Assembly (NCBI GenBank): GCA_021162935.1
Contig: JAGGXR010000102.1
Span: forward strand, 1 to 45,736
Source: Deltaproteobacteria bacterium
GTDB taxonomy: Bacteria; Myxococcota_A; Polyangia; HGW-17; SLPX01
Direction: 5' to 3'
Length of the DNA stretch: 45,736 nt
Part shown: one piece after another, positions 6,598 to 38,402 of the stretch
Position numbering within the stretch: the stretch's first letter is position 1
Layout of the letters: each line of letters begins with the position of its first letter
Notes under the pieces: model-generated
Seen by the model: the letters and a program-made list of their open reading frames with translations, nothing else
Databases searched by the model: none
Told to the model about the DNA's origin: nothing
Made by a program: the position numbers and the translations under genes

Positions 6598-8943
6598 ATG
6601 TCGACATTCGAGAAAGCCGCGTTCGATGTGGATTGGGCCGTGCGACACAGAATACGGCGAAACCGATTCGCTGGTGGGATGATTCTGGTCGGTGGGCTTC
6701 TGTCGACCCTCGGGATTTGGGTCGGTTGTGGCGGCGGTGGGCACCATGCCGAAACCTGCGGACCCGACACCTGTGCTCAAGGCTGTTGCCGAGACGGGGA
6801 ATGCACGTCGTCGTCGGATCAGACCTGCGGGGTTTCCGGACAGGCCTGTCAGGACTGCACTGCCATCGACGAAACCGACACATGTGACCAGGGCGCATGT
6901 ATCTGTCGCGCGGCCGGGCAGTCCTGTGATCCTGGAGAAATTTGTCTCGCGACGGGCTGCTCCAACTGCCATCCGGATTGCGCAGACAAATGCGTCGGGG
7001 CGGACGACGGCTGCAACGGCACGTGCCAGATCAACGATTGTGCGGGCTGCTGCAACGACCAACACCAATGCGTAAGCTCAGCGAATCAAACAGCGTCCCA
7101 ATGCGGAACCGGCGGGGAATCCTGTGCCGACTGCACATCGTCCGACAGGACCGATGTCTGCAATCAGGGAACCTGTGTCTGCCAGGCGACCGGGCAGTCC
7201 TGTCCATCCGGTCAGAACTGCACCCAGACGGGCTGCTCCAACTGCCATCCCGATTGCTCCGAGAAATGTGCCGGTGCAAACGACGGATGCGGCGGATCCT
7301 GCCAGGACAGCGACTGCAGCGGATGCTGTGACGCAAACGCCCAATGCGTGGCCGTAGCCCAACAGTCGGACGCGGCCTGTGGTCTGTCGGCGGAGACCTG
7401 TCGGGATTGCCGCACCGGGGACTGGAGTTGCAACGCCGGACGGTGTTTGTCCGTTCGGGACCGGGACGCCGCGTTCCTGTCCGAAGTGGTGCCGGCGTCC
7501 GTATCGCTCGGCGGCCAGTTTCAGGTGACCGTCACAATGCGGAACGTGGGTAGGGACACCTGGACGGCGGCGGACCAGTATCGTCTGGGTGCCCAGCGGC
7601 CTCAGGACAATGCGACGTGGGGGCTGAGCCGCGTCGAACTGAGTGCAGCGGAATCCATTGCCACCGGGCAGGACAAGACCTTTTCCTTCTCTGTGACCGC
7701 GCCGTCGAGCCCAGGTTTTTACGACTTCGAGTGGCGGATGCTCAAGGAGGGAGTGGCCTGGTTCGGTCAACGTTCCGAACCGCTGCGCATCTACGTAGGC
7801 ACGGAGCAGGTGGAGGTCTGTGAGGCCGCCCGGGCCTTGGCCAACCAACAGACGGACGCGTCGTCCACTATTCAGGCCTGCATCGATGCAGCCCCTGCGG
7901 GCGCCTTCGTGGAGTTGCCGGCAGGGCGCTATCAGTTGGACCACCAAATTCTGATTGCATCCCATCCCGTGACCTTCAGGACCGAGCAGACCACGCTGTT
8001 CGATCCACCTTGTGACACCAGCGGAACGGGCTGCGCCGTACTCGTGGCATCCGCCTCGTTTGCGGACACATTGGGCGTCCTGCGAGTCCTCCAAAATGGA
8101 GCAGCCCTGGATCACATCGTGGTGGACGGCAACAAATCGGGTCGGTCCCAGACTGCCTCTGCGCAACATTGCGCTTCGTACGACAACCAGTACGGCTACA
8201 ACATCCAGATGGTCTGTGACGACTGCAGCCTCACCAACAGCGTCACGCAAAACGCCCTGTGCGGAACAGGCTGCGAGGTGTCCGGGGTGCGGCACAACGT
8301 CCTCGTCTGGCGCAACACGATTGCGTCCAACGGTGTGCACGATCACGAAGGTATGTGGTCCGACGGCCTGACGGTGCACGATGGCCGACAATCGGTGTTC
8401 TGCGAAAACCGAATCATGGACAATACGGACGTAGACCTGATCTTCGGAGGCTGCGTGGATTGCGAGATCCGCGACAACGTCTTGTCCCATTCGACCGCGT
8501 TCGCATCCAGCTCCTTTGCCGCGGTGATGCTCCATGCGTGGCCAGATGGAAACGGCGGAAACGGCACAAGCGGTGACTACACGGGCACGGACACCGTCGG
8601 AAACATCATCGACTGCGGGACGCAGCATCGCTGCGGCATTGGGCTCTACCTGGGATCCGACGCCTGGTACATCACCGACGTGCACAGCGGCACCGTATTC
8701 GGCAACGTGGTGGACCGTGCCCAGCAGGGCCTGCTCATCGACGATGTCCATGACATGATCGTGTTCGACAACGTGGTGGCGCACCCAGCCCAGACATCCA
8801 CAGCTTCCTGTGGCACCAAGGCCACGAACGCATACGGCATCGGCACGAGATCGCACAACGTGGATTTTTCGCAGGATCGTTTTGGCACCCAGTACACCTC
8901 AGTGGACTGGGACGGTTGCATCCCGAACTGGTGGAATCCGTAG
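6598..8943 (+). CDS. secreted multidomain protein: two tandem Cys-rich modules, an NBR1-like Ig domain, and a right-handed parallel beta-helix (pectate-lyase-like fold)
   Basis: N-terminal signal anchor (GGMILVGGLLSTLGIWVGCGGG). Two ~110-aa repeats of a Cys pattern (CGxxGxxCxxC...GCSNCHPDCxxKCxGAxDGCxGxCQ..DC.GCC). An NBR1-like segment (GQFQVTVTMRNVGRDTW....FYDFEWRMLKEGVAWFG). A C-terminal region with the periodic small-residue/Asn ladder expected of a beta-helix (NVLVWRNTIASNGVHDHEG.., DNTDVDLIFGGCVDCEIRDNVL.., GNVVDRAQQGLLIDDVHDMIVFDNVV). AAGGTG RBS before the ATG at 6598. Confidence 0.65.
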   Translation: MSTFEKAAFDVDWAVRHRIRRNRFAGGMILVGGLLSTLGIWVGCGGGGHHAETCGPDTCAQGCCRDGECTSSSDQTCGVSGQACQDCTAIDETDTCDQGACICRAAGQSCDPGEICLATGCSNCHPDCADKCVGADDGCNGTCQINDCAGCCNDQHQCVSSANQTASQCGTGGESCADCTSSDRTDVCNQGTCVCQATGQSCPSGQNCTQTGCSNCHPDCSEKCAGANDGCGGSCQDSDCSGCCDANAQCVAVAQQSDAACGLSAETCRDCRTGDWSCNAGRCLSVRDRDAAFLSEVVPASVSLGGQFQVTVTMRNVGRDTWTAADQYRLGAQRPQDNATWGLSRVELSAAESIATGQDKTFSFSVTAPSSPGFYDFEWRMLKEGVAWFGQRSEPLRIYVGTEQVEVCEAARALANQQTDASSTIQACIDAAPAGAFVELPAGRYQLDHQILIASHPVTFRTEQTTLFDPPCDTSGTGCAVLVASASFADTLGVLRVLQNGAALDHIVVDGNKSGRSQTASAQHCASYDNQYGYNIQMVCDDCSLTNSVTQNALCGTGCEVSGVRHNVLVWRNTIASNGVHDHEGMWSDGLTVHDGRQSVFCENRIMDNTDVDLIFGGCVDCEIRDNVLSHSTAFASSSFAAVMLHAWPDGNGGNGTSGDYTGTDTVGNIIDCGTQHRCGIGLYLGSDAWYITDVHSGTVFGNVVDRAQQGLLIDDVHDMIVFDNVVAHPAQTSTASCGTKATNAYGIGTRSHNVDFSQDRFGTQYTSVDWDGCIPNWWNP

Positions 8944-8975: not shown

Positions 8976-10226
8976 TTAGGGTTCGCTCGGGCGGGCTGGA
9001 GGATCCGGTAGGCCAAACACCACGGGGACGGTCCCAAGTGACGCGAGTGACGCGACCACGAGGGCCTGGTGGAGGTCCATGAGATCGCCGAGCCAGCCCA
9101 CGAGCAGGACGGCAACGGAGCTGCCCGCAAACGAAATGGTCATGTAGATGCCGTTGAGAAAGGCTGGGCGTTCCCGAGCAGTTTCCTGAACCAGGGCCAA
9201 CAGGATCGGGCTCGACGCAAAAACGATGAAGCCAACCAGGATCAGCAGGAGCAGAGAGGCCCACCCGTGCATGGATAGAAACACGAGGGCCGCAAGCGGG
9301 CCTGTTGCCGACACGAACACAAGGAGTCGTTTTCGCCCCAGATGGTCCGACAGGGTGCCGCCCAGCAACGTGCCCGCCGCGCCCGCGACCTCCATAATGG
9401 TCAATGCGGCTCCGGCGAACCAGAGCCGTTCTCCTCGGGCCATGAGATACGTGGGCAAAAAAAGCGTCAGAGACGACTTAAGCATGGCCCTCAGAAACGT
9501 GAAGGCCGCCATGCCGAGCAAGAAGCGTCTGTGACGAATCAGGGTGTCTCGAATGGGCAGGGGTGGTTTGGTGTTTGTCGGGTTGGGCTGATCTTCCTTC
9601 ATTCGAAAGAGCGGTACCACCAGAAGGGCCGAGGCGACCAGGCCTACCGGGATGAGCCTCCAGGTGCCTTCGAAGCCCCACCAGGACACGGCCGCCACGA
9701 TGACGATTGGGCCTAGGGCGCGAGCCGTTTCCCCTCCCAGCATGTAGAGGCTCATTCCGCGGCCCACACGGTTGCCTGACGCCTGTTTGATGAGCACGGG
9801 AGCCGGCACGTGGAAACAGGTGACACCGATCCCCACGATTAAGAGAAGCAGGGTCACCATGGCGTAGCTGTCCGCCCAGCCCAGCAGACTCATGGCCGTA
9901 GCGGTGAGCGCTGGTCCCAGGGCGAGCAAGAACCGAAGTCGTCCGCCATCGGCCCACAGGCCCATGAATGGATTCAGGAGGCTTGGAACCTGGCGGACCA
10001 CGTTCAACAGAGCTGCCCGCGTGTAATCGATGTGGAGCTTTCGAATGAGCAACGGCAGAATCGGCGGCAGGAACGCGGAAAAGATATCGTGCACGAGATG
10101 CGCCGTGGCCACGACGAGCACTGCTCCCAGTCGGAATCGCTTCTGTGCACCGGACATTCGTGGGGTAGAATCGGATGACGACGGGGTTGGTCCCTCAGGT
10201 GCCATGACCTTTCCTGCGCTGGACAT
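8976..10226 (-). CDS. MFS transporter
   Basis: About 12 predicted TM helices. MFS-like loop motifs (GxLSDHLGRKR between TM2-3-like segments). Alternative in-frame ATG starts at 10205 and 10157. Convergent with the upstream gene. Confidence 0.75.
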   Translation of the reverse strand: MSSAGKVMAPEGPTPSSSDSTPRMSGAQKRFRLGAVLVVATAHLVHDIFSAFLPPILPLLIRKLHIDYTRAALLNVVRQVPSLLNPFMGLWADGGRLRFLLALGPALTATAMSLLGWADSYAMVTLLLLIVGIGVTCFHVPAPVLIKQASGNRVGRGMSLYMLGGETARALGPIVIVAAVSWWGFEGTWRLIPVGLVASALLVVPLFRMKEDQPNPTNTKPPLPIRDTLIRHRRFLLGMAAFTFLRAMLKSSLTLFLPTYLMARGERLWFAGAALTIMEVAGAAGTLLGGTLSDHLGRKRLLVFVSATGPLAALVFLSMHGWASLLLLILVGFIVFASSPILLALVQETARERPAFLNGIYMTISFAGSSVAVLLVGWLGDLMDLHQALVVASLASLGTVPVVFGLPDPPARPSEP

Positions 10227-10318: not shown

Positions 10319-11794
10319 ATGGATGTCATGGTGAGCCTTCGTTTTCATTGCGTCCGTTTCCTTCGACCAGGTCGAGATACGCCCCGGTGGCAGTCGACCG
10401 TCTTGGCATGTGTGACCCTGGTGGCGCTATCCATCGCTGGCGGCTGCGGCACTGGCCATGGATTTTCGTACGATGGTGATCCGGGCCAGGCCGAGCAGGC
10501 GACCCTGGTTGCCTGGGCACCGGCGGTCGAGGCCATGATCGTGCCGCCGAGCGATGCGTCGCCCATCCAGGGCCTGTTCCTCCTGGACACGGGGTCGCCC
10601 GTTTCAGCGGTGGACCTGGGCTTCCTCGCATCGCAAGGGCTGGACACGGGAATCGGATCGGACCCACGGCTCCTGTCCGGATACGAAATCGATGCTTTCG
10701 GCCTCCACTTCTTTAATCGGAGGCTGGTTGCCGCAGCCTTGTTCAGCCCGTCGCAGCCTCTCGACGGCATCATCGGAGCCGACATCCTGGATCATTTCTG
10801 CTTGGCCCTGGACGACCAGGCACACACGGTGACCTTGGCCCGAACGAGCGACGACGTTGCCGCCGCGTCTCCGGTGGCAGATTCCCGATCCGTTTCCTTG
10901 GAGGTGGCTGGCGGCGGAATCATGATCCTGCCAGGTGACGTGCGTCTGTCGGTTCCCGCCACCAGACTGCTCGTAGACGTGATGGTCGAGGGCCGTACCG
11001 TGACCGCCGTGGTGGACACGGGTGCCTCGGCGGTGCTGCTGGGCCCGGACCTGGCAAAGGACCTCATGACCGACGACCCGACACGACCCAGGCTCGACGG
11101 CCTGGAGGTGGACACGGCAGATGGTCTGGCAGACGCATCCATGATTCGGGTGGCGTCCCTGTCCGTGGGCACGTCGGTCGCTCATTCGCTGCCCTGCATG
11201 GTGGTACAAGACGCCGTGGCGTTCCAGTCGCTCGAAGCAGAACTGGGGCGCCCTGTGTCCCTGCTCCTCGGAGACACGTTCCTGCGGGAATTTTTCGTGG
11301 CCCTGGACATTCCAAGACAAACAATGCTGCTGGCGCGATATCAGAGCATGACGCATCTCGACCCAAGAGAGTTCGTCTTCGTGGGCCTCTCTCTTCGGGC
11401 GTCGGGCAATGAGGTGGTGGTGGACCATGTGTATCCTGGCAAAGACGCCGAAGCCAAGGGCGTGCGCAGTGGAGACGTGGTGATGGCCATCGACGACAAC
11501 ACGGTCACCTCCGTCGAGCGGGCTATGGATTTGGTACGTGCCCATGACGTCGGGCAGACCGCGGCGTTTCGATTCGAGCGGAACCGGGCCACGTTCAACG
11601 CGGACCTCTTGGTCGAAGACTTGCTGCCTGCCTACCCAGCCCAAAAGTCCACACCGAATCGCGGCGATCTGGATGCCGACGCCCATGATGGAGGCTCCCT
11701 TTGGTGGCAACAGCACAGACTGGGTGGTTTGGTCAACGTGCTCGGCCCATTTGGCCTGCCACCGCTCGTGCGATCGGGGAGCGCTCGGCCATGA
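10319..11794 (+). CDS. secreted pepsin/retropepsin-like aspartic protease with a C-terminal PDZ domain
   Basis: Two DTG-type active-site motifs (LFLLDTGSPVSAVDLG and VTAVVDTGASAVLLGPDLA) give a bilobed aspartyl protease. The C-terminal PDZ-like segment is GVRSGDVVMAIDDNTVTSVERAMDLVRA..GQTAAFRFERN. N-terminal signal/lipobox-like peptide (LACVTLVALSIAGGCG). The stop overlaps the next gene's start (ATGA). Confidence 0.6.
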   Translation: MDVMVSLRFHCVRFLRPGRDTPRWQSTVLACVTLVALSIAGGCGTGHGFSYDGDPGQAEQATLVAWAPAVEAMIVPPSDASPIQGLFLLDTGSPVSAVDLGFLASQGLDTGIGSDPRLLSGYEIDAFGLHFFNRRLVAAALFSPSQPLDGIIGADILDHFCLALDDQAHTVTLARTSDDVAAASPVADSRSVSLEVAGGGIMILPGDVRLSVPATRLLVDVMVEGRTVTAVVDTGASAVLLGPDLAKDLMTDDPTRPRLDGLEVDTADGLADASMIRVASLSVGTSVAHSLPCMVVQDAVAFQSLEAELGRPVSLLLGDTFLREFFVALDIPRQTMLLARYQSMTHLDPREFVFVGLSLRASGNEVVVDHVYPGKDAEAKGVRSGDVVMAIDDNTVTSVERAMDLVRAHDVGQTAAFRFERNRATFNADLLVEDLLPAYPAQKSTPNRGDLDADAHDGGSLWWQQHRLGGLVNVLGPFGLPPLVRSGSARP

Positions 11795-13815
11795 GGCATT
11801 CTGTATCGCATCGCCTCACGCTCCTCGCCTCGCTGGTCGTGCTGTTCGTGGCAGGGCAGGCAGAAGCCCAAATCGTGTATCAGCAGGTTTACAAGCCCCA
11901 GCCGGCCAGACAGGCAAAGCCGCGCAAGGGCGCAAGGGCAGCAAAGGGGCGGAAACCGAGACGCGGGGGCAAGGGCGCCAAGGCGGGCAACGCATCAAGG
12001 CCTGGCCAGGGCACCAAGGGTGCAAACGCGGCCAAACCACAGCCGCGGGGAAAGCCTGGCCAGGACACCAAGGGTGCAAACGCGGCCAAACCACAGCCGC
12101 AGGGAAAGCCTGGCCGGGGCACCAAGGGTGCAAACGCGGCCAAACCACGGACGAGCGCTGGAACCAGGGCACAGACCAATGGAAAGGTGCCGCTCAAGGG
12201 CCATGGGCCCGGATGGAAACGATCCTGGACCATGCCTTGGAGCCACGCCAAGACAAGGCCTGCCGGGCAAGCTGCCGGTGCCGGCGGCAGCGTGGGCGAA
12301 AGAGGCGGGACGAAAACTGGTTCTGGTATCCATGGCGCACCTGGTTCGCAGGGCTCGTCGGACGGATCCGGAGGAACCGGCACCAAAGCAGCAGACGCGA
12401 CCGCGTCGAAGAAAATCCTGCGGGTCTGGAAGGTGACGGTCATTGGAGTCACCAAAACCTCGAAGGAAACGGTGCGGGCGATGTCGGAGATCCATCGGGG
12501 CGATCTCATCACGCCCGAATACGTGGATCGCGTGCGCAAACGACTCATCAACACGAAGGTGTTTCGCAAGGTGTCCATTCTGTGGGAAGAAATCCCGAAC
12601 CGTCCCGGCTGGGCAGCAATCTTTTTGGAATGCAAGGACCGATGGTCCTGGTTCATCGCCCCCATGTTCACCTGGCAGCAGGGTCGATGGGGCGGCGCGT
12701 TGGCGTACGGAGAGGCAAACCTCTTTGGATGGGGTAAACGGCTTGGAGTGGCTGGTGCGTACCTGACCGATTCCCAATATCTTGGGGTCGGGTACCAGGA
12801 CCCGAGTATCCACGGGTCGCGATTCGTGCTGAAGGTGGGCCTCGGATTCAAACGCCAGCTCTTCAAGGAGTACCTGCGGATTTTGGGCAAACCTCTGCAC
12901 GATGCCCAGTCGATTCGGTCCCTGTGGGTCCAGCAGCTTTCGGCGACCATGACCCTGGGCTACAAGTGGTGGGGAAAACTGGAGACCAGGATCGGATACA
13001 AATTCGCCCTGGTCGCCTTCAACCACCCCAAGTGTCCGTTCCAAACGGGACCAGACGGCCAGACGGGAGACTGCGCCACCCCATGGGACGAGTACGGCGG
13101 CTCCTACAGCGGCCCCATCGTATTTCGACAAAAAGACGGAACGTATCTGGACCATACCTATGCGAAGGGAAAATTCTGGCGGTATCGACGTGAGGGAATC
13201 GTCCAGCTCGGCATCGGATACAGCACGGTTTTGGACCTGTTCGGCATCAAGCAAGGATGGTCAGTGGGATTCAAGATGGACATCTCCCACCCGCACCTTG
13301 GCTCCCAGTTCCAGTACGTCAAGTGGTCGGTTTCCGGATACAAGGCATTTCGGTTCTTCAAAAGCCACGTGCTGGAACTGTTCGCCAAGCACGAAGAGGC
13401 CTATGGGGCGCCCTATCATCGAGAGCTGTACATGGGCGGCAGCTACCTACCAGGCTACGTGTACCGGCAGGCGCTGGGAGACATGGACACGTCGGTCAAG
13501 GCGGCCTATTCGGTCCCCTTGTTTCACGTGTGGTGGTTTTCGTTCCGGCAGGTGTTCTACTACCGGTTCGCATGGATCTTCTTTCGTGACGGTGGCAAGA
13601 AACGGCCCTACTACGAAGAACACAACGGCGTGCGTCGCTATCACCTCGCCTTCGAGCCCGGACCCAAGGACCGAGCCTCTTTCCTGGAGAGCATCGGCAC
13701 GGGGCTGCGGCTGCACGTCAAGGCAGTGGCCATGCCACTTTTGGGCGTGGACGTGGCCTACGGATTCGAAGCCAATGCCGTGCGGTTCTATTTCTACGTC
13801 GGGAAGAACTACTGA
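11791..13815 (+). CDS. Omp85/BamA-family outer-membrane beta-barrel protein with one POTRA-like domain and a Lys/Pro/Gly-rich repetitive N-terminal region
   Basis: Signal peptide MRHSVSHRLTLLASLVVLFVAGQAEAQ. A ~200-aa basic low-complexity region containing a 54-bp tandem repeat. A POTRA-like segment (ILRVWKVTVIGVTKTSKETVRAMSEIHRGDLITPEYVDRVRKRLINTKVFRKVSILWEE). A long C-terminal region of alternating aromatic/hydrophobic beta-strands ending ...RFYFYVGKNY. Translationally coupled to the flanking genes (ATGA at 11791, TGATG at 13813). Confidence 0.5.
   Translation: MRHSVSHRLTLLASLVVLFVAGQAEAQIVYQQVYKPQPARQAKPRKGARAAKGRKPRRGGKGAKAGNASRPGQGTKGANAAKPQPRGKPGQDTKGANAAKPQPQGKPGRGTKGANAAKPRTSAGTRAQTNGKVPLKGHGPGWKRSWTMPWSHAKTRPAGQAAGAGGSVGERGGTKTGSGIHGAPGSQGSSDGSGGTGTKAADATASKKILRVWKVTVIGVTKTSKETVRAMSEIHRGDLITPEYVDRVRKRLINTKVFRKVSILWEEIPNRPGWAAIFLECKDRWSWFIAPMFTWQQGRWGGALAYGEANLFGWGKRLGVAGAYLTDSQYLGVGYQDPSIHGSRFVLKVGLGFKRQLFKEYLRILGKPLHDAQSIRSLWVQQLSATMTLGYKWWGKLETRIGYKFALVAFNHPKCPFQTGPDGQTGDCATPWDEYGGSYSGPIVFRQKDGTYLDHTYAKGKFWRYRREGIVQLGIGYSTVLDLFGIKQGWSVGFKMDISHPHLGSQFQYVKWSVSGYKAFRFFKSHVLELFAKHEEAYGAPYHRELYMGGSYLPGYVYRQALGDMDTSVKAAYSVPLFHVWWFSFRQVFYYRFAWIFFRDGGKKRPYYEEHNGVRRYHLAFEPGPKDRASFLESIGTGLRLHVKAVAMPLLGVDVAYGFEANAVRFYFYVGKNY
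12001..12162. repeat. 54-bp tandem repeat (about 2.8 copies) encoding PGQGTKGANAAKPQPRGK units
   Basis: Units at 12001-12054, 12055-12108 and 12109-~12150 are near-identical. It is in frame (18 aa per unit) inside the Omp85-like gene. Confidence 0.85.
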
Positions 13816-18287: not shown

Positions 18288-19520
18288 GTGACGACACGTC
18301 AACTGAAACTTGTATTCGTTGGATGGGAGGGCAAAAATCTGTGGGCCGATGCCACGGCGCGCGGATGGACGTCCCTTCTGCATGGCGCACCAGTGGGAAT
18401 CAAGGTCGTGGGAAGAGGGCCCACCATTGATCCATCCATTTCGTCTCAAGGAGCATGGGCGAGCGCTTCGATTTCGGGAGACCCGCACGGTTCCTCGCCG
18501 AATATGGCCTCGATATCCGAGGTCTGGGACAAAACCGCTGCCTCGGTGCTTCTGGTTCGGCCCGGGACGCCTCCGCCCAATGGAGCATTTCTTGGATCCT
18601 TGCTCAGTGGGCTACTCGATCTGTCTCTTCCAGATGGTCGGGCACCTGGCTCGGTGCGGCAATGGGCGCAGATGGCGGTGACCGCAATGAAAAGTCGCGG
18701 CTTGGCGTTGGGATCGACGGTCACGGCGCGCGAGGTGCCTTCCTGGCCGGCCTGGCTCCAGCATCTGGTGGTCGGCGGGTCGCAGCCCGACACCGTATGG
18801 TCTTCCACGAATCGGGACGATCGAGGATCCTCGGCGGGTCAAACAGGTGCTGGATGGCTCGATCCGTCGTGGGCCTGTCGTCCTGCGGATCCAGGGGCTG
18901 TGGGCGCCTTTGCCTCCATGCATGGATTCGATGTCGATGGCTACACCGCGCTGGCTCCTGGGCGGCTCGATGCTCACAACCCGGCGTTTCCCGTAGCACT
19001 GGCCAGGGTGGCTGACTACCTGACCGCGGAACGAGGTCTGCCATGCATCCTCCTCGGCAGTGATGCCGCAGAGGTTTGTTCCTGTGCGTCGGTGGCTCGA
19101 TCCAGCCGGATTCGACACGACGTGTTCGGCCCCATGGATCTCGACGCCCCGATGTCCATGGCCCTCGTCCGTCACGCACAACTCCTGGTGGGGCCTGCAT
19201 CCTGGGCGCGGTCCTGGGCCCTGCGCCTCGCAGTGCCCACCGTGCCCATGACACAGACAGACCCAGGATGGATCTGGCCGGATTCCTTGGAACCGCTGGC
19301 CGAAGCGCCTAAACCCAACGAAGCTCCCTGGTGGACGGCCCTGGACCGACTCTTCGACGATTGGAGGATCCGGACGGATCTGCTCGCTGCCATGGAAACC
19401 TCCTGCTTGCTCGGCCTGGACGAACTGGCCAGGCTGGTTTCGTGGGTGCGCAGCCGACTCGATGTACCCAACGACGCTCCGTTCCGTGCGTTACTTCCAG
19501 CCTTTGTGGCTGATCCATAG
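18288..19520 (+). CDS. hypothetical protein, probably co-transcribed with the lipoprotein gene
   Basis: GTG start with GGAGGG 5 nt upstream, only 27 nt after the upstream stop. Weak resemblance of the C-terminal part (GSDAAE...LLVGPASWARSWALRLAVPTVPM) to GT-B/heptosyltransferase C-termini. Not a confident call. Confidence 0.35.
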   Translation: MTTRQLKLVFVGWEGKNLWADATARGWTSLLHGAPVGIKVVGRGPTIDPSISSQGAWASASISGDPHGSSPNMASISEVWDKTAASVLLVRPGTPPPNGAFLGSLLSGLLDLSLPDGRAPGSVRQWAQMAVTAMKSRGLALGSTVTAREVPSWPAWLQHLVVGGSQPDTVWSSTNRDDRGSSAGQTGAGWLDPSWACRPADPGAVGAFASMHGFDVDGYTALAPGRLDAHNPAFPVALARVADYLTAERGLPCILLGSDAAEVCSCASVARSSRIRHDVFGPMDLDAPMSMALVRHAQLLVGPASWARSWALRLAVPTVPMTQTDPGWIWPDSLEPLAEAPKPNEAPWWTALDRLFDDWRIRTDLLAAMETSCLLGLDELARLVSWVRSRLDVPNDAPFRALLPAFVADP

Positions 19521-19525
19521 GAGGC

Positions 19526-19574
19526 TGTTCAGAATAGGGTAAGCCAATTTGGCGCCTCGAGGCGCCCGTCTGGC
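19526..19574. repeat. copy A of a ~48-nt conserved extragenic element (TGTTCARAATAG..GCCAATTTGG-hairpin-CCCGTCTGGC)
   Basis: Begins 6 nt after the stop codon at 19518-19520. Contains the perfect 16-bp palindrome GGCGCCTCGAGGCGCC. A second copy is at 24021-24068. Confidence 0.7.
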
Positions 19575-19672
19575 CCTGGGCGGGCCGGTGACGTATAGTA
19601 AGGACGTAGAGACGCTTGGGGCGATGTCGGTCGTTGCGGCCGACGGCCCCATACACGGAGGCGACGTGACCC

Positions 19673-22913: not shown

Positions 22914-24014
22914 ATGGCTGAACGCATCGACATCGACCGAAGGCGCTTTCGCCAAATCGTCCGGGGCAAGATCAAGGAGAACCTCCGCAAGTACATCAGC
23001 CGCGGAGATCTCATCGCCCCGAAGGGCAAGGATCGCGTCTCCATTCCCATGCCCCAAATCAACATTCCCAAGTTTCGCTATGGAGGTGAAAAGGGGGTCG
23101 GTCAGGGCAAGGGCGACGTGGGCGACCCCGTTGGCGAGGGAGACAAGGGACAGGGCAAGGGCAAAGCCGGCGAACAGCCCGGACAGCACGAACTCGAAGT
23201 GGAATTCACGGTCGAAGAACTGGCGGCATTACTCGGAGAGGAACTCGCCCTGCCCAACATCCAGCCCAAAGGCGTACACCAACTCGAAACGATCAAAGAA
23301 CGCTATACCGGAATTCGGCAGACCGGGCCCGAGTCGCTGCGTCACTTCAAACGGACCTTCAAACGGGCACTGAAGCGGCAGATCGCATCGGGGACCTATC
23401 GACCAGAGAGTCCCATCATCATCCCGATCCGCGAGGACAAACGATATCGTTCCTGGAAGACGGAAACGCTGCCTCAGTCCAATGCGGTCATCATCTACAT
23501 GATGGACGTCTCTGGCTCCATGGGGGACGAGCAGAAAGAAATCGTTCGAATCGAATCCTACTGGATCGACGCCTGGCTCAGGACCCAGTACCGAGGCATC
23601 GAGTCCCGCTACATCATCCACGACGCCAAAGCCAAAGAGGTGGACCGGGAGACGTTCTTTCGAACGAGAGAGTCGGGGGGCACCATGATTTCGAGTGCCT
23701 ACAAGCTCTGTCAAAAAATCATTCTGCAGGACTACCCGGCAGGATTGTGGAACATCTACCCCTTCCATTTCTCGGACGGGGACAACTGGTCCGGCGACGA
23801 CACGTCGGTCTGTCTGCAACTTCTGGACAAAGAACTTTTGGGCCAGGTCAACATGTTCTGCTACGGCCAGGTCAAGAGTCCGTACGGATCGGGGCAGTTC
23901 ATCAAAGATCTCCGGAAGCAGTTTCCCGAACACGACAGTCTCATCACGTCGGAGATTCGGGACAGGGACGCCATCGTGGACTCCATCCGGGATTTCCTGA
24001 GCAAGGGAAAATAA
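22914..24014 (+). CDS. yhbH: YhbH/YeaH family protein (DUF444, vWA-like), partner of PrkA
   Basis: Starts 10 nt after the prkA stop. Has the conserved [10 protein letters not shown] vWA-MIDAS-like motif and the Gly-rich/basic N-terminal region typical of YeaH/YhbH. Confidence 0.8.
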
Positions 24015-24020
24015 AAAGGG

Positions 24021-24068
24021 TGTTCAAAATAGCGTTGCCAATTTGGGGCACCGAGGCCCCCGTCTGGC
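24021..24068. repeat. copy B of the ~48-nt conserved extragenic element
   Basis: Begins 6 nt after the yhbH stop (24012-24014). About 85% identical to copy A over 48 nt, with a compensatory base-pair change in the hairpin (GGcGC..GCgCC versus GGgGC..GCcCC). Confidence 0.7.
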
Positions 24069-24445
24069 ACGAAACGACGAGGGCACGTGCTGGCAAAAGC
24101 ACGCAACCGAGGAGCTACAACGCCAGACAGGCTGGATCGCGGTCCCAAATGACACTTTTATTCTGATCAGCCGACTCATGGGGCTCGCGGTCGATTGGTC
24201 AGTGGTCACGGTGGTCACCAGGGCCGATGCAACCGAGGGCTGGACCGACCCCGATAGCGTGCTTATGTTTTGCATGTCGAACACTCGCCATGATCCGGCC
24301 CAGTCGGACAGGATCGCCTTCGGGCTGTGACTGGTGACGATCATGAGCCGGAATATCAGGTGTCTTACGATGCGACAAAGAATTGCCCCGACATCGAGCA
24401 CGGACATGCTCGTGAATCGGGGTGGCTCAGTAAGGAGTGACCAGA

Positions 24446-24979
24446 ATGGGATCGAAGCCCCAGGCACGCCAGGACCAGAGAAGCCAAAACAAAGGCCCCC
24501 TGCCGAACGACGCCACGTCGAACCAAATTGATTCGGAACGCGACGCCTATGTGCGGCTGCTCGCGGATTTCGAAAACTATCGACGGAATGCCGAATCTCG
24601 CTTGCAATCGTCCCGGCAACGGGGAGAAGATGACATGCTACAGCAACTCATCCCAGCGATTGCGGACCTGGAACAGGCGGTCCAAACCAAGACTCACGAC
24701 GCCGAAGCCCTGCGCCATGGAGTCGATCTGGCCCTGAGAAAGCTGGAATCCATTCTGGCGGGCCTGGGCTACGAACGGATCAAGACGAAAGGCCAACTCA
24801 TGGACCCAACCCTCCACGAGGCCATCGCCGCCCGACCGGCGCCTAAAATCCATGGAACCATTATCGACGAAGTCACCCCAGGTTACCGGCGAAATGGTCG
24901 TCTGGTGGTAGCGCCCAAGGTCGTGGTGTCAAGCGGGCCGGCGGGACCGGCCGACGCAAAAGGAGGTGATCCCAGGTGA
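24446..24979 (+). CDS. grpE: nucleotide exchange factor GrpE
   Basis: Signature [10 protein letters not shown]-like segment ([13 protein letters not shown]). AAGGAG RBS 8 nt before the ATG at 24446. The track's GTG at 24437 overlaps the RBS. Confidence 0.85.
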
Positions 24980-26193: not shown

Positions 26194-26344
26194 ACAACTA
26201 CTATCTACACAGTCATCCACACTGTTCCTGTAGAACTGCGTCTATGCGCTTCTAGACGGATGCTCCGGTCCCGCTCCGAAGAAAAACATCTGGAGGGCTT
26301 GACCGCGATGTGCTCGTGATTAGCTTGTTTATTGCGAAACAATG

Positions 26345-32256: not shown

Positions 32257-35200
32257 CTACTGTCGAACAGCGTTGAAATAGATGTCTCCGTGGACGTCGT
32301 CTGTCCTGGTGTCCACCCAAACGACGTACCCATCCGTAGCACCATCCGTCATAAGTCGCGGAGAGAAGGACTCGGCCGATCCAGGCGGACTCGCTCCATC
32401 AAGGCGGACATCGGCCGGCTGAAAGTTGAGCCCGCTATCCAAGGAATAGTTGAGGTAGATATCCCTCAGACCGTCCCGGTCGTCTGCAAAAGCGACGAAG
32501 ACCTTGCTGCCTCCCGACGCCAACTGAACGTCTGAAACGTATCCCGGACCGGCCGAAGCCCGAACCGACGAACGAATCGTGGCACCGTAGTCGATCGAGC
32601 TTGCGACTCGGATCATGGGCAGCCCCTCACGAAAGTCCTGCCACGCCATATACAAGGTCCCCGTCTGCCCCAAGGCGAAGCTCGGTTCGTACGAATTCGC
32701 GTCGCCCTTGTCGCTGTCCACCTGCCGGTCAGCGAGCCAACTCGTGCCGTTGTCCACCGAACGTGCAAGGTAGATGTCCGAGTAGGGGACTCGACGCAGG
32801 TCCTGCCAAATCACGTAGACATGTCCGGCTCCGTCCGTGCCCATTCGCGGATACTTCGACGCAGCCGCTCCGGCCGCGTCCGTATCGAGTCGAAGGTCGG
32901 AGGTGCCAAACGTCGCCATGTCATCGGTTGAATTCAGATAAATGTCCGCCGCCCCATCCCGCTGGTCCATCCATGTCACGAGAATCCGACCCGACTGGCC
33001 GATGGCCACGCGGGGCAGTGAAGCAAGAGCATGGGTCGGATCGGAAGGCACCTGGTTCACTCTGAGAGGCGATGTAAAAGTCTGGCCATGGTCGGAGGAT
33101 GCGGCAAGATAGACGTTGTGTTGTGGATTCGTATTGCCCGATCCCTCCACGAAATCCTCCCAAACCACGGCCACTCGGCCGGCTCCATCAGCAGTCAGGT
33201 CCAGGTTGAGTGAATCCACGTTTCCCGTGTCCAGTCGTTTCTCAGCATCGAATGCGGCACCACAGCCTGCGGCCCTTCTGAAGTAGATGTCACGGTCTCC
33301 ACCCGTACGAAAGTCCGTGTATACCACGTACACCCAGCCACTCGGATCGGCGAACACGCGTGGCTTGACGCTATCGGACGAGCCCGTGTCCAGACGAAGG
33401 TCGGCACTCCAGGTGACCCCACCGTCCGAAGAACAGGCATAATAGATGTCTGCGTTGCCGTTTCTCGTGTCCAGCCAGACGACGTACACGTTGTTTCCAT
33501 CGGCAGCAAGGTCCACCTGGATGGAGTTGGCTGCGCCTGGATTGCTCGTGATGTCCAATCGTTGGTCCGTTGAGTCTTCGGTGACACATCCCGCCAGGTC
33601 GGTGGTACTGTCGCAGTCGTTGTCCAGGCCGTCACAGACTTCAGCGGATGGGTCTACATTGCCTTCACAGATTAGGTGATGGTTGGTGCAGGCGGTCGTG
33701 CCGTATCGACATTCACCCGTGTTCGACACGCCGCACTGGACGCCGACTCCCTGTGGGTCATCATCCACAAAGCCGTTGCAATCGTTGTCCTTGCCGTCGC
33801 AGATCTCCGGCTGGGGATCGATGGCACCCTGACAGATTACCTGGCCGTTCGGGCACACGGTGACGCCCACCTGACACTCACCCACGGAACTGCCGCACAG
33901 GTCGCCCGTGTCCAACGTATCGTTGTCCGGCTGTCCATCGCAGTCGTTATCGACTCCATCACAGATTTCCGGCTGCGGGTTGATGCTGCCCGAGCAGACC
34001 AGGATCCCGGACGAGCAGGCCCATGTACCTTGCTGGCACGCTCCCTGATTCGTCCCACAGACACCGCCCGTATCGATGAGGTGGTTGTCCGCCACTCCGT
34101 CGCAATCATCGTCGAGGCCGTTGCAGGTTTCGGCGACCGGCCCCTGCCCACCCTGGCACAGTGGCTGTCCGCCTTGGCAGACCATGGTCCCTCGCTGACA
34201 TTGCCCAACGCCGGTGCCGCAGGGGCCGCCCACGTCCACTGGCGCGTTGTCGGTTACGCTGTCGCAGTCATTGTCCTTGCCGTCACACACCTCCACATGG
34301 TGGCCGACACCTCCAGAACAGATCAGAATTCCAGATGAACAGGCCCACGATCCATGCTGACATTCTCCTTCATCTCTACCACACGAGCCACCAACATCGG
34401 TCAGGTTGTTGTCGGCAACGCCATCGCAGTCGTTGTCAACGCCGTCGCAGACTTCTGTGCCACTGTTCGTCTCGGTGCAGGTGTATTCGCATCCGTTCCC
34501 CGGAGCGTTGTCCAAATTCACATACCCAGGCTTGCAGGAGATCAGGACGCAGCTTCCCAAGACACAGTCCATGGTGGCGTTTGGTGCCGAACAGACATGA
34601 CCGCAGGATCCGCAGTTTGCCGGATTCGACGACGTGTCCACGTTGTCGTCGATGCTCCCATTGCAATCATTGTCCAGACCATCGCAGATCTCCACGCCTC
34701 CGTTGGTTGCAACGCAGGCGTACTCGCATCCGTCGTTTTCGTCCTGGTCCAGATCCAGAAATCCGTCATGGCACCGGGTCAACCGACAGTGGCCCTCTTG
34801 ACACTCGGAATCCGCGTTCGTCAAGGCGCATGCGGTGCCGCACGATCCACAATTTGACTCGTCATTCATCAGGTCAAAATCTTCGTCCGTCTCGCCGTCG
34901 CAATCGTTGTCCAGACCGTCGCAGAGTTCCTGGCCCCCATTCGAGGGCATACAGGCGTATTCACATCCGTCAGACATGTCGTGATCCAGATCGATGTAGC
35001 CCGGAGCACAACCCTGGAACACGCACTTGCCCTGCTTGCAGTAACTGAAGCCGCCCGGAACCTGGCAAGAATTCCCGCAGGATCCGCAGTTGTCCGAATC
35101 CAGGGCCAGGTTGAAGTCTTCGTCGGTCAGTCCGTCACAGTCGTTGTCCAGTCCGTCGCAAAGTTCTGTGCCGCCGTTGGTGACCTCGCAGGGTCCTGCA

Positions 35201-38160
35201 TCCACCTTGTGGACCCCGCTGTCGTTCCTTTGGGGTGAGTATCCGTCGATGTCCTGGAACTGGTATGGATTCATGTTGCAACCACCCAGGATGAACACGG
35301 TCGCAACCGCTGCGACGAGCCTTTTACGTCGTTTCCAAACCAACGCAAACAGGGCCAGCAGGACGAGCCACAGGCCCTGGCCGGATTCACCAGCCGAGTC
35401 ACAGGAACAGCCGCCCCCACCAATGGCCAACACCTGCTGACCTGACCTGCCGGGAACGTAGTCGGATGGGTCCTGGCACTGCCCTTCTGTGCAGGTGCCA
35501 CCCAAAGGGCAGGTGACCTGCGCGCAGGGATCGTCCACGCATTGGCCGTCGCTACAGACGCGGTCCTTGCCGCAATCCACTCCACTGCAGGGATCTGGTT
35601 CACAGACGCCGTCCCGGCAGCGGTTGCCCCAGCCGCAATCCTTGTCGACGCAGGGATCCTGACTGCAGATGCCGTCCTTGCAGCTTTGTCCCGCCGAGCA
35701 AACCACGTGCTCACAGGTGTTCACACATTCACCCTGGCGACAAAACTGGTGATCCGAGCAGGTGACCTGGGCACAGGGATCATCGATACAGGTGGCGTCC
35801 CGGCAGACCTGGCCATCGGGGCACCCAAGCCCATAGCAACTGTTCTCGATGCACTGGCCTTTTTCGCAAATTTCGTCGTCCGTGCATTGGACGATATCGC
35901 ACAGGTCCACGCACTGACCGTCTTGACAGATCTGCCCTTCTGGGCAGGACACGCCGTAGCATGCAGTCTGCACGCAGTAGCCGTCCTGACAGGCCATGCC
36001 GCCCGGGCATTGAAATTCGCCTTCACTGCAAGAGATGCGACAGGCGCAGTCCACACATTGTGAACCAGGCGGACAGAGGTCTCCGTTGTCGGTCTGTCCA
36101 TCGCAATCATTGTCGACGCAGTCGCAGATTTCCGACACGGGCCCCACTGCGCCATCGCATTGCAGGGCACCGGCGATGCAGTGGATGGCGCCCAAAGAAC
36201 AGATGCCTTCGTTCGTGATGCCGCAGACACCACCACCTCCCGGATCGTCATTATCCACGACGCCATCACAGTCATTGTCCCGTCCGTCGCAGACTTCTGG
36301 CTGCGGTCCGATGGCCCCCTGACACACGAGTTGCCCCCCGATGCACTGATAGATACCTGGCCGACACTCCCCTTTGTTCTCTCCACACGGACCGCCCTCG
36401 TCCACAGGATTGTCGTCCACGACACCGTTGCAGTCGTTGTCATTGCCGTCGCAGACTTCGGGCTGCGGCCCGATGGAACCCTGACACACGAGAGCGCCGT
36501 TGACGCAGACCTCGATACCGGTCTGGCACTCTCCCACGCCGCTGCCACAAGAGCCTCCGGCATCCGTTGGATTGTTGTCGGTATGGCCGTCACAGTCATT
36601 GTCCAGGTTGTCGCAGACTTCTGATTGCGGCCCCACGGCACCCTGGCAAATTGGGGCGCCGTTCGAGCAAACCATGGTGCCCGTCTGGCATTCCCCTTCG
36701 TCCTTGCCGCAGGTACCTCCCACGTCGATGGGGTTGTCGTCGATGGCGTTGTTGCAATCATTGTCCAGGTTGTCGCAAACCTCAGGTTGCGGCCCCACGG
36801 CTCCCTGGCAGGTCAAGGCACCGTTGCTGCACACAGTCGTTCCATGGCTGCATTCTCCCACGTCCGTGCCGCAGGTGGCCCCCTCGTCGATGGGGTTGTT
36901 GTCCGTGTCGTTGTCGCAGTTGTTGTCGATGTTGTCACAGACTTCGGGGGATGGTTTGACCTCTCCTTGGCATATCAAATGGTGTTGGTAGCAAACCGTG
37001 ACACCCTGCTGGCACTGGCCCACGTTCGAGCCGCAGGGTTGGCCGTCGTCGGTGAGATTGTCGTCCGGAGTTCCATTGCAGTCATCGTCGAGCCCGTTGC
37101 ACGTTTCGGGCTGTGGTCCGACTTCCCCCTGGCAGACCAGATGGCCGTCCGTACAGACAGTATGCCCCGTGGAGCAGGTGCCCACGTTCGTGCCGCAGGC
37201 GCTTCCCTCGTCGATGAGGTTGTCGTCCGTGGTGCCATTGCAGTCATTGTCCAGGTTGTCGCAGATCTCAGGTTGCGGCCCCACAGCTCCCTGGCAGACC
37301 AGGTGGCTGTCCGTGCAAACTTGGATGCCCTGCTGACATTCTCCCTCGTCCGTGCCGCAGGGGCCACCGGCGTCGACCGGATCTTCGTCGGTCTGGCCGT
37401 CACAGTCGTTGTCCTGCCCATCGCAAATTTCCGGATTCGGGACACAAGGCGGCGTCAACCCCTCGACCAAGAGGGTCATGTCGGTGAAGTCGTTGTCGCC
37501 ACCTCGAAACAGATCTTCGAAGGCGAAGTAGAATCGGTTTTGGTGCGCCTTGGACGTAAAGACCAGGAAATGGACGTAGTCGCCATCGCCGTTGAGTTCG
37601 GTCTCCGTGTAATACATGTGACCGAAAAGATCCGGCGGCGTGAAGTCGCCGCAGTTCACATGTGGGCTCGATGTGTTGCCCTGAGGCGTGATGAGGTAGA
37701 AGCCGATGAAACCGCCATCCCAGCGTCCGTTGTCGAACTGGACATCGAAGTCGATGTCCGTGGCGTCGCCGGGTTCATTGTTGACAGGGCTGCAGTCGAA
37801 AATCACGTACAGGTGGTTCGGGTCTCCGACGTTGTACCAGCCGAAGCTGTTCTCGTATCCCGCCTGCTCCTGGATGTCTTCGAAATGCACCGTCCGCCCG
37901 GAGCCATATTCCGGAGGCAAAAAGATCTGTGGAAACAAATAGGCGTCTTTGGTGGCATCGAGATAGTTCGGATCGTTTGGATTCGAAATCCCTTCGCTCG
38001 TCTCCAATTGGGTTTGAAGGCTGTTGGTGGTGGGGACGATGGTGCCATCCACTTGACTGACCGTCGCCCGAGCGCTCAGGTCGAACAGGACACCCGAGGC
38101 AACCAGAACAACGGTACCAGAAATGATGGCAACGAGACGTAAGGAAACGAAACGTTTCAT
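32257..38160 (-). CDS. giant secreted repeat protein that looks like two fused genes. Part 1: signal peptide + DUF4114-like domain + 9 MopE-like DNDCDG repeats + Cys-rich stalk + MYXO-CTERM. Part 2: lipoprotein signal + 9 MopE-like repeats + BNR/Asp-box beta-propeller.
   Basis: Start at MKRFVSLRLVAIISGTVVLVASG (ATG 38160, AGGAG RBS). Eighteen C-x-DG-x-DNDC(D/N)G-x-D repeats. A mid-protein GGGGCSCDSAG...LWLVLLALFALVWKRRKR segment is immediately followed by LVAAVATVFILGGC. C-terminal Asp-box repeats are SSDGGVTWS, SSDHGQTFT, SVDNGTSWL, SLDSGLNF. The long plus-strand ORFs across this interval are antisense artefacts. Confidence 0.7.
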   Translation of the reverse strand: MKRFVSLRLVAIISGTVVLVASGVLFDLSARATVSQVDGTIVPTTNSLQTQLETSEGISNPNDPNYLDATKDAYLFPQIFLPPEYGSGRTVHFEDIQEQAGYENSFGWYNVGDPNHLYVIFDCSPVNNEPGDATDIDFDVQFDNGRWDGGFIGFYLITPQGNTSSPHVNCGDFTPPDLFGHMYYTETELNGDGDYVHFLVFTSKAHQNRFYFAFEDLFRGGDNDFTDMTLLVEGLTPPCVPNPEICDGQDNDCDGQTDEDPVDAGGPCGTDEGECQQGIQVCTDSHLVCQGAVGPQPEICDNLDNDCNGTTDDNLIDEGSACGTNVGTCSTGHTVCTDGHLVCQGEVGPQPETCNGLDDDCNGTPDDNLTDDGQPCGSNVGQCQQGVTVCYQHHLICQGEVKPSPEVCDNIDNNCDNDTDNNPIDEGATCGTDVGECSHGTTVCSNGALTCQGAVGPQPEVCDNLDNDCNNAIDDNPIDVGGTCGKDEGECQTGTMVCSNGAPICQGAVGPQSEVCDNLDNDCDGHTDNNPTDAGGSCGSGVGECQTGIEVCVNGALVCQGSIGPQPEVCDGNDNDCNGVVDDNPVDEGGPCGENKGECRPGIYQCIGGQLVCQGAIGPQPEVCDGRDNDCDGVVDNDDPGGGGVCGITNEGICSLGAIHCIAGALQCDGAVGPVSEICDCVDNDCDGQTDNGDLCPPGSQCVDCACRISCSEGEFQCPGGMACQDGYCVQTACYGVSCPEGQICQDGQCVDLCDIVQCTDDEICEKGQCIENSCYGLGCPDGQVCRDATCIDDPCAQVTCSDHQFCRQGECVNTCEHVVCSAGQSCKDGICSQDPCVDKDCGWGNRCRDGVCEPDPCSGVDCGKDRVCSDGQCVDDPCAQVTCPLGGTCTEGQCQDPSDYVPGRSGQQVLAIGGGGCSCDSAGESGQGLWLVLLALFALVWKRRKRLVAAVATVFILGGCNMNPYQFQDIDGYSPQRNDSGVHKVDAGPCEVTNGGTELCDGLDNDCDGLTDEDFNLALDSDNCGSCGNSCQVPGGFSYCKQGKCVFQGCAPGYIDLDHDMSDGCEYACMPSNGGQELCDGLDNDCDGETDEDFDLMNDESNCGSCGTACALTNADSECQEGHCRLTRCHDGFLDLDQDENDGCEYACVATNGGVEICDGLDNDCNGSIDDNVDTSSNPANCGSCGHVCSAPNATMDCVLGSCVLISCKPGYVNLDNAPGNGCEYTCTETNSGTEVCDGVDNDCDGVADNNLTDVGGSCGRDEGECQHGSWACSSGILICSGGVGHHVEVCDGKDNDCDSVTDNAPVDVGGPCGTGVGQCQRGTMVCQGGQPLCQGGQGPVAETCNGLDDDCDGVADNHLIDTGGVCGTNQGACQQGTWACSSGILVCSGSINPQPEICDGVDNDCDGQPDNDTLDTGDLCGSSVGECQVGVTVCPNGQVICQGAIDPQPEICDGKDNDCNGFVDDDPQGVGVQCGVSNTGECRYGTTACTNHHLICEGNVDPSAEVCDGLDNDCDSTTDLAGCVTEDSTDQRLDITSNPGAANSIQVDLAADGNNVYVVWLDTRNGNADIYYACSSDGGVTWSADLRLDTGSSDSVKPRVFADPSGWVYVVYTDFRTGGDRDIYFRRAAGCGAAFDAEKRLDTGNVDSLNLDLTADGAGRVAVVWEDFVEGSGNTNPQHNVYLAASSDHGQTFTSPLRVNQVPSDPTHALASLPRVAIGQSGRILVTWMDQRDGAADIYLNSTDDMATFGTSDLRLDTDAAGAAASKYPRMGTDGAGHVYVIWQDLRRVPYSDIYLARSVDNGTSWLADRQVDSDKGDANSYEPSFALGQTGTLYMAWQDFREGLPMIRVASSIDYGATIRSSVRASAGPGYVSDVQLASGGSKVFVAFADDRDGLRDIYLNYSLDSGLNFQPADVRLDGASPPGSAESFSPRLMTDGATDGYVVWVDTRTDDVHGDIYFNAVRQ

Positions 38161-38402
38161 GGCTCCTACTCCTGTGATTGGATCCACAATCGTGGGGTGT
38201 CGATTACGAGGACGCTCTCATCCTTCGGCCATTCGGCCCGAACCCCAAGCCGATCAAGGACCTCCTTTACATCTTACACCAACCCCCCTCGTTGTCATCG
38301 ACTGAATCGCCGACTCACAGAGTGTGACTCATTCATTGACTGGTGCAAGGATGGCTCCTAAAGTAGCAGCCAGAATCTCGCCGTTTGGAAAGAGGAATCG
38401 CA

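Follow-up and report, generated by a model that had tools for sequence, protein, structure and literature searches.

A short extragenic repeat in an uncultured marine Myxococcota lineage as the probable left arm of a MITE/REPIN-like mobile element

A repeat of about 48 nt that occurs twice in the window (the whole stretch of 45,736 nucleotides analysed here) is probably the left arm of a longer, non-coding and non-autonomous mobile element of the MITE/REPIN-like kind, restricted to a lineage of uncultured marine Myxococcota. Six units are known in all (A, B, B', C, D and D'), distributed over four loci, of which three are in the source species and one in a relative; A and C are left-arm fragments, and B and D are full copies. 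Two of the loci show insertion polymorphism, with C present in its own contig and the site empty in L065-L069, and B present in the window and its site empty in L059-L063.

The two copies first seen in the window, A (19526-19574) and B (24021-24068), share 41 of 49 aligned columns (84%, with one gap), in good agreement with the first-pass annotation, which had placed them at these same coordinates and put their identity at ~85%. The similarity breaks off abruptly beyond ~19521-19575 and ~24015-24070, and the core GCCAATTTGG-N13-CCGTCTGGC has just two exact matches in the window, one in each copy. Stop codons lie immediately upstream of both, TAG at 19518-19520 for copy A and TAA at 24012-24014 for copy B, with TGTTCA beginning 5 and 6 nt further on, respectively. 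When more copies are aligned the homology extends back up to the stop codon, and copy A starts at the G of the TAG that terminates a 410-aa ORF. Its right end is CTGGCC, a boundary that comes from the comparison with the related locus L061. With nhmmer, copy A is recovered at E=4e-8 with the full-element profile and at 1e-15 with the profile of the unit. Copy A is followed by a TonB-like gene, prkA and a DUF444 gene, and copy B by grpE, dnaJ and two hsp20 genes. The features of copy A are as follows.

19521..19575, plus strand: copy A, a left-arm singlet matching profile positions 2-56 of ~165
19543..19574, plus strand: core of copy A, a GCCA/TGGC outer stem enclosing the perfect palindrome GGCGCCTCGAGGCGCC

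Copy B is contained within a considerably longer structure, the parts of which are listed here.

24012..24014, plus strand: TAA stop codon of the DUF444 gene, abutting the left tip; by analogy with the TTA/TTA of D, it may be the left-hand member of a T-N-A target duplication of 3 nt
24015..24175, plus strand: element B, a 161-nt imperfect palindrome composed of left arm, central spacer and inverted right arm (nhmmer E=4e-53)
24015..24070, plus strand: left arm of B, which includes copy B at 24021-24068
24071..24120, plus strand: central spacer of B, with a small apical hairpin CGTGC ... GCACG at ~24086-24103
24121..24175, minus strand: right arm B', the unit in inverted and diverged form (~64% identity with copy A), without the local GC hairpin
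24176..24178, plus strand: TCA abutting the right tip, which may be the right-hand member of that target duplication in diverged form

The reverse complement of 24121-24175 matches units A and B at 64%, running from the tip through ATTTGGG to TGTCTGGC, and TGATCAGAATAA is found on the minus strand at 24158-24169, within the inverted repeats of the extra DNA at B. The local alignment of B' with unit A scores 20, a value reached by none of 5000 dinucleotide shuffles, and B' is the top match in the window apart from copies A and B themselves. Because B' aligns to the unit in inverted orientation and does so beyond the level of shuffled sequence, B is best described as an inverted doublet extending across 24015-24175, and the 48 nt that had been taken as the unit are instead the left arm of a palindromic element of ~160 nt. 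The layout of a full element is thus two inverted arms of ~55 nt separated by a spacer of ~50 nt; full elements measure 158-161 nt and have no coding capacity. Terminal inverted repeats are present, since in both B and D the two tips, GGAGGCTGTTCAAAATA and GGAAGCTGATCAGAATA, are imperfect complements and the arms pair along their whole length, and the palindrome in every left arm has CCAATTT as its 5' flank. As single-stranded DNA or as RNA the full element is predicted to fold into one long hairpin, with the proviso that B taken alone folds no better than its shuffles (z=-1.27).

The second full copy, D, is a 158-nt element between convergent genes at an unrelated locus in the closest relative (10029-10186 of contig L076, from the same sample as the relative with 95% identity in DUF444). 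Translating the frame that runs through B and searching with it led to a spurious gene call of 58 aa (P0361) at D; no other recorded reading frame crosses the element, and the only other library match of P0361 is a repetitive protein of 694 aa at E ~1e-4. Aligned end to end, B and D are identical at 125 of 167 columns (75%), and D is flanked by TTA on both sides. The long hairpin common to the two comprises 42 pairs, and the differences between B and D within it include seven one-sided changes that keep the pairing (six of them via G-U) and one compensatory change. Folded as single-stranded DNA, D reaches z=-4.7, and none of 200 shuffles folds as well. The right arms B' and D' are alike and both are without the small GC hairpin, which argues that copying involved the entire asymmetric element and not the 48-nt unit.

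The insertion at B is evident from comparison with relatives in which the gene order tonB-like, prkA, DUF444, grpE, dnaJ, hsp20, hsp20 is kept. The spacer between the DUF444 gene and grpE is 422 nt in the window as against 145-147 nt in L059 and L060, where the DUF444 protein is 95% identical, and in L061-63, where it is 75% identical. About 165 nt of the extra DNA in the window aligns directly 3' of the DUF444 stop codon, and this segment is absent from all five loci (L059-L063). The DUF444 protein itself is identical on metagenome contigs of several assemblies, and its next relatives have names such as Polyangia, Kofleriaceae and Haliangium, which places the organism among the uncultured Myxococcota. 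An empty site for copy A was sought through homologues of the TonB-like protein, and no close relative was found, the best match below 100% being 56% identical.

At the locus of copy C, filled and empty alleles can be compared within one species. Copy C is a left-arm fragment of 65-69 nt in L010, on a contig whose G+C is that of the window, and it lies between an amino-acid-kinase-family ORF and asnS. It spans profile positions 14-75, and is without 10 nt of the tip and without the entire right arm; there is no TGTTCA on its left, it is 91% identical to B over 56 nt, and it shares with B a further ~16 nt on the right. Of the central spacer of B, the first ~25 nt are common to copy C. The interval from the stop codon of the amino-acid-kinase gene to the Shine-Dalgarno sequence of asnS is longer by 69 nt in L010, and the corresponding site is empty in L065-L068, which are of the same species (AsnRS 98% identical), have near-identical flanks, and have a spacer of 11 nt; a 70% relative is likewise empty at the asnS site. 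The filled allele reads CACTAA-GGAG-[ATAGGG...GCGCATGAT]-GGAG-GCTGTAGATG and the empty allele CACTGA-GGAG-GCTGTAGATG, and the junctions are also compatible with a 4-nt GGAG microhomology. Lacking part of the tip and the right arm, copy C does not fit simple cut-and-paste transposition, with a later deletion and a repair-templated insertion using the GGAG microhomology equally possible.

Two further observations concern this region. The 9-mer GGAGGCTGT, which is the left tip in A (window 19520-19528) and in D (L076 10029-10037) and which occurs only once in the window, is also the native asnS Shine-Dalgarno region exactly at the C insertion site (L065 ~9990-9998). This match may reflect insertion beside sequences similar to the tip of the element itself, or chance may account for part of it, as GGAGG is a generic ribosome-binding site. 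The AsnRS encoded at L010 1717-3111 has about a dozen relatives at 61-70% identity, mostly unnamed, and its best named matches (57-60%) are otherwise from Cyanobacteria and Melainabacteria and not from Myxococcota; the asnS of this lineage may thus be of horizontal origin.

Searches for additional copies show the family to be narrowly distributed. A scan of metagenome contigs for exact matches to the core gave seven loci, of which three are those of this organism (A and B from a low-coverage sample, and C on L010) and four are chance matches without flank similarity. The same scan of GTDB genomes gave 43 single matches in unrelated phyla, none of them like the element, where ~70 are expected by an estimate from the 17 specified bases, and viral contigs gave two chance matches only. 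BLAST searches of plasmids and phages with the full element and with the tip returned no meaningful match, and profile and Smith-Waterman searches of ~273 kb of sequence from this lineage returned no further copy. There is no transposase gene, RAYT included, among the window ORFs or the called genes of the flanks examined, and no autonomous element with matching ends in the lineage loci, plasmids or phages examined. Rfam reports nothing at the gathering threshold in the window and nothing on the element at E<=10 in L008, L010 and L013. A tRNA or tmRNA fragment, or an attachment site, was considered and rejected, as ARAGORN finds nothing in the window.

All copies at the four loci are intergenic, and the left flank of each terminates in TA, TAA or TTA, which for A, B and C is the stop codon of the upstream gene. 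The flanking repeats are TTA/TTA at D and TAA/TCA at B; at C they are TAA...TGA plus an extra T or, alternatively, the 4-nt GGAG repeat. Relative to the empty site, B and C have one extra T each. Taken across the four loci this is in keeping with a target of T-N-A or TA and a short duplication. We propose that the element lands on T-N-A sites; tolerated sites of this type in a genome of 59% G+C would be largely stop codons, and this could account for three of the four copies abutting one. Long terminal inverted repeats together with T-N-A flanks favor a DDE-type enzyme with a ~3-bp target duplication, and the element would presumably be mobilised by a transposase encoded elsewhere in the genome. 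Effects on adjoining genes, by way of transcript hairpins or insulation, would be by-products of its presence.

A more specific version of these events appears doubtful to us. In it the element targets stop codons as such (T-N-A being TAA, TGA or the TA of TAG), the stop codon is regenerated by the target duplication, and the left half with its GC hairpin may be mobile on its own by a single-strand, hairpin-guided route of the RAYT/IS200-like type and not by a DDE enzyme. Jointly these features would constitute an undescribed REPIN-like system in the Myxococcota.

The small hairpin within the unit was the basis on which selection for structure had been suggested. Copies A and B can each fold a 5-6-bp GC hairpin within the GCCA/TGGC outer stem, and the small palindrome is formed by the left arms A, B and C and in a shifted version by D; it is missing in the right arms B' and D'. 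For their composition, the 60-nt units have ordinary fold energies (z of +0.24 to -1.74). The covariation reported in the first-pass annotation amounts to a single compensatory pair (C-G in one copy, G-C in the other), which copy C breaks in register, and the covariation score is matched by 243 of 500 shuffles; statistically, the covariation is thus not supported. A strain variant of copy B found in L008/L009, corresponding to window 24037-24068, carries G in place of C in the 3' arm of this hairpin, with which a stem is still possible in a register shifted by one and with a 7-nt loop.

These properties bear on the possibility that the repeat acts at the level of RNA, in a 3' UTR or between cistrons, whether as a terminator lacking a U tract, as a stabilising hairpin or as a processing site, and has been retained for that function, its mobility being secondary. 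It is in keeping with such a role that three copies begin at a stop codon, that stable hairpins are possible for the units as well as for the full element, and that most positions of the long stem at which B and D differ are G-U-compatible on the plus strand; transcript side effects of this kind are known from REP and Correia elements. We nonetheless regard it as improbable that function of this sort explains the repeat, because the orthologous sites in relatives are without the element, and because the small hairpin has not been kept by the right arms and shows no significant covariation. The terminator proposed earlier is unlikely for the singlets in particular. In contrast to an intrinsic (Rho-independent) terminator there is no U tract directly after the GC-rich stem, the hairpins being followed by CCGTCTGGC..., and the terminator scan reports no canonical terminator at either copy. 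A strong terminator at C would moreover be harmful, since C splits two genes, one of them asnS, that are 11 nt apart in the empty allele and presumably co-transcribed there.

Less probable again is that the element, instead of being selfish DNA, is a multi-copy small RNA gene of ~160 nt with a single long hairpin. The full-length homology of B and D and their common fold would be expected of such a gene, but neither promoter nor terminator signals nor an Rfam match accompany them, and the half copies A and C, the presence or absence of copies at stop codons, and the flanking direct repeat at one locus look like insertion and not gene duplication.

The occurrence of A and B upstream of plus-strand stress-related genes had led to the suggestion that the repeat is a regulatory site shared by those genes, whether an operator or an ECF, sigma-32 or sigma-54 promoter, serving the tonB-like/prkA-DUF444 and grpE-dnaJ-hsp20 operons; CCAAT...CGTCT within it does, by eye, loosely resemble ECF-type -35/-10 boxes. 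The comparison with relatives makes this very unlikely, as the same spacers in syntenic relatives are without the repeat and retain other motifs. One of these, GGGCTGGACCG-N-GCTTATGTTTTG, stands before grpE (window 24236-24272) and is kept in the repeat-free relatives (L059 ~2225-2262; L061 ~11195-11232), and a similar motif, GGGCTTGACCG...GCTTGTTTATTG, stands before the first hsp20 gene (window 26295-26330); GGCTKGACCG matches exactly only at these two sites within the window. The GGGCTGGACCG...GCTTATGTTTTG motif resembles sigma-32-type heat-shock promoters, and the grpE/hsp20 motif is a likelier shared signal of these stress genes than the repeat is. Similarly, CTGGCC-N18-TATAGT before the TonB-like gene (window 19570-19599) has a counterpart, CTGGCC-N18-TATATT, in the 75% relative L061 (~6600-6629), and is a probable promoter; the CTGGCC hexamer, which precedes the TATAGT box by 18 nt, is overlapped by the right end of copy A. 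The stress operons therefore have conserved motifs of their own, kept where the repeat is absent, and the repeat is not their signal. The other copies point the same way, with C preceding asnS and missing in other strains and D lying between convergent genes, and the near-perfect identity over ~50 nt is well above that usually shared by promoters. Particular promoter classes were also considered and rejected: for sigma-54 the GC is one position off GG-N10-GC in A, B and C, as read from the sequence, for sigma-70 and sigma-32 the scans give no sigma-70-type match at the repeat, and the ECF likeness is contradicted by the relatives.

Two differences in the same region may be recorded separately. 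GrpE is called at 177-180 aa here and at 222 aa in the 95% relative (window 24437-24979 as against L059 2323-2991), and the distance from the promoter-like motif to the start of grpE is greater by ~90 nt in the window.

Least credible is chance similarity or a one-off local duplication, the case that the first-pass annotation had itself set against its reading: the window does hold just two copies, 4.5 kb apart, but none of 100 dinucleotide shuffles of the window contains two core matches, and copies on other contigs and in another species refute it.

We thus return to the mobile element, which can be set beside several known classes of bacterial repeat. Among bacterial MITEs, the Correia elements of Neisseria and the RUP elements of Streptococcus pneumoniae are examples in which the terminal inverted repeats are long and the target duplications of TA type. 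The element described here is like these in being ~100-170 nt long and non-coding, with long imperfect terminal inverted repeats and a hairpin that takes in the whole element, and also in its intergenic placement near gene ends, its A/T-containing flank repeats (TTA/TTA at D), its presence or absence among strains, and its truncated copies. It differs from them in that there is no sequence similarity, no cognate insertion sequence has been found, and the copies so far are very few; furthermore, a clean target duplication is seen at one locus only (D), and C is a half element and as such not a normal product of cut-and-paste transposition. The MIRU-type repeats of mycobacteria are intercistronic and overlap stop and start codons, and copy C resembles them in its placement exactly at the upstream stop codon, inside an operon of a GC-rich genome, but MIRUs are direct tandem repeats with small in-frame ORFs, whereas those described here are inverted-repeat hairpins.

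There is also substantial similarity to REPs and REPINs. The unit is composed of a 5' flank, a short GC-rich palindrome and a 3' flank, an inverted pair of units with its spacer forms a long hairpin (B/B' and D/D'), singlets occur as well (A and C), and the repeats are extragenic and differ between close strains. A GTAG-type tetranucleotide at the foot of the palindrome is a feature of the REPs of E. coli and Pseudomonas; no such head stands beside the palindrome here, where CCAATTT is found instead. The arms are also longer than REPs (~55 nt as compared with ~20-35 nt), and the units in the right arms have lost the short palindrome. A REPIN consists of two inverted REP units forming a hairpin, each unit having the structure flank-palindrome-flank (PMC3337134), and both REPs and REPINs are mobilised by RAYT transposases (Bertels & Rainey, PMC3116915, PMC3337134). 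No RAYT is present among the window ORFs or flank genes, and six units are known so far, where REP/RAYT systems have tens to hundreds of copies per genome. REP singlets are regarded as immobile remnants (PMC3337134), whereas singlet C is seemingly a recent insertion. The earlier proposal of a REP/BIME-like extragenic palindrome was therefore broadly right as to kind, given polymorphic insertions on other contigs and in a related species, and membership of the REP/RAYT family is not established.

Repeats of quite different types are present elsewhere in the window and its relatives. At 2667-2887 there are eleven tandem 15-nt repeats of the CCTGGCGGCATCTGG type in a minus-strand SPFH/Band-7 gene with zinc ribbons, which would encode a proline/glycine-rich pentapeptide repeat, and at 11916-12158 there are four tandem 54-nt repeats, the last three 87-94% identical, at or near the 5' end of an Omp85-family ORF (11701-13815). 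A very long ORF (~1970 aa) with matches to DUF4114 and MopE-like proteins occupies 32257-38187 on the minus strand; it is made of numerous repeat modules of 162 nt and 237 nt, in which D-x-D-x-D-G/C motifs are frequent. Comparable giant MopE-like genes are found after asnS in L065 and, in L072, beyond the position of the window's right end.

In the literature searched we found no MITE or REPIN described for myxobacteria, and this family adds a small mobile repeat to a poorly known lineage of uncultured Myxococcota, the kind of element itself being well known. For the stress genes a false lead is removed, as their promoter-like motifs lie elsewhere in the spacers. The family also supplies strain-level insertion markers, of which the asnS site is an example. 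If stop-codon targeting is true, it would permit harmless colonising of even 11-nt intercistronic gaps in essential operons, and the preference for stop codons, if real, would be a neat case of safe-site choice by a bacterial MITE.
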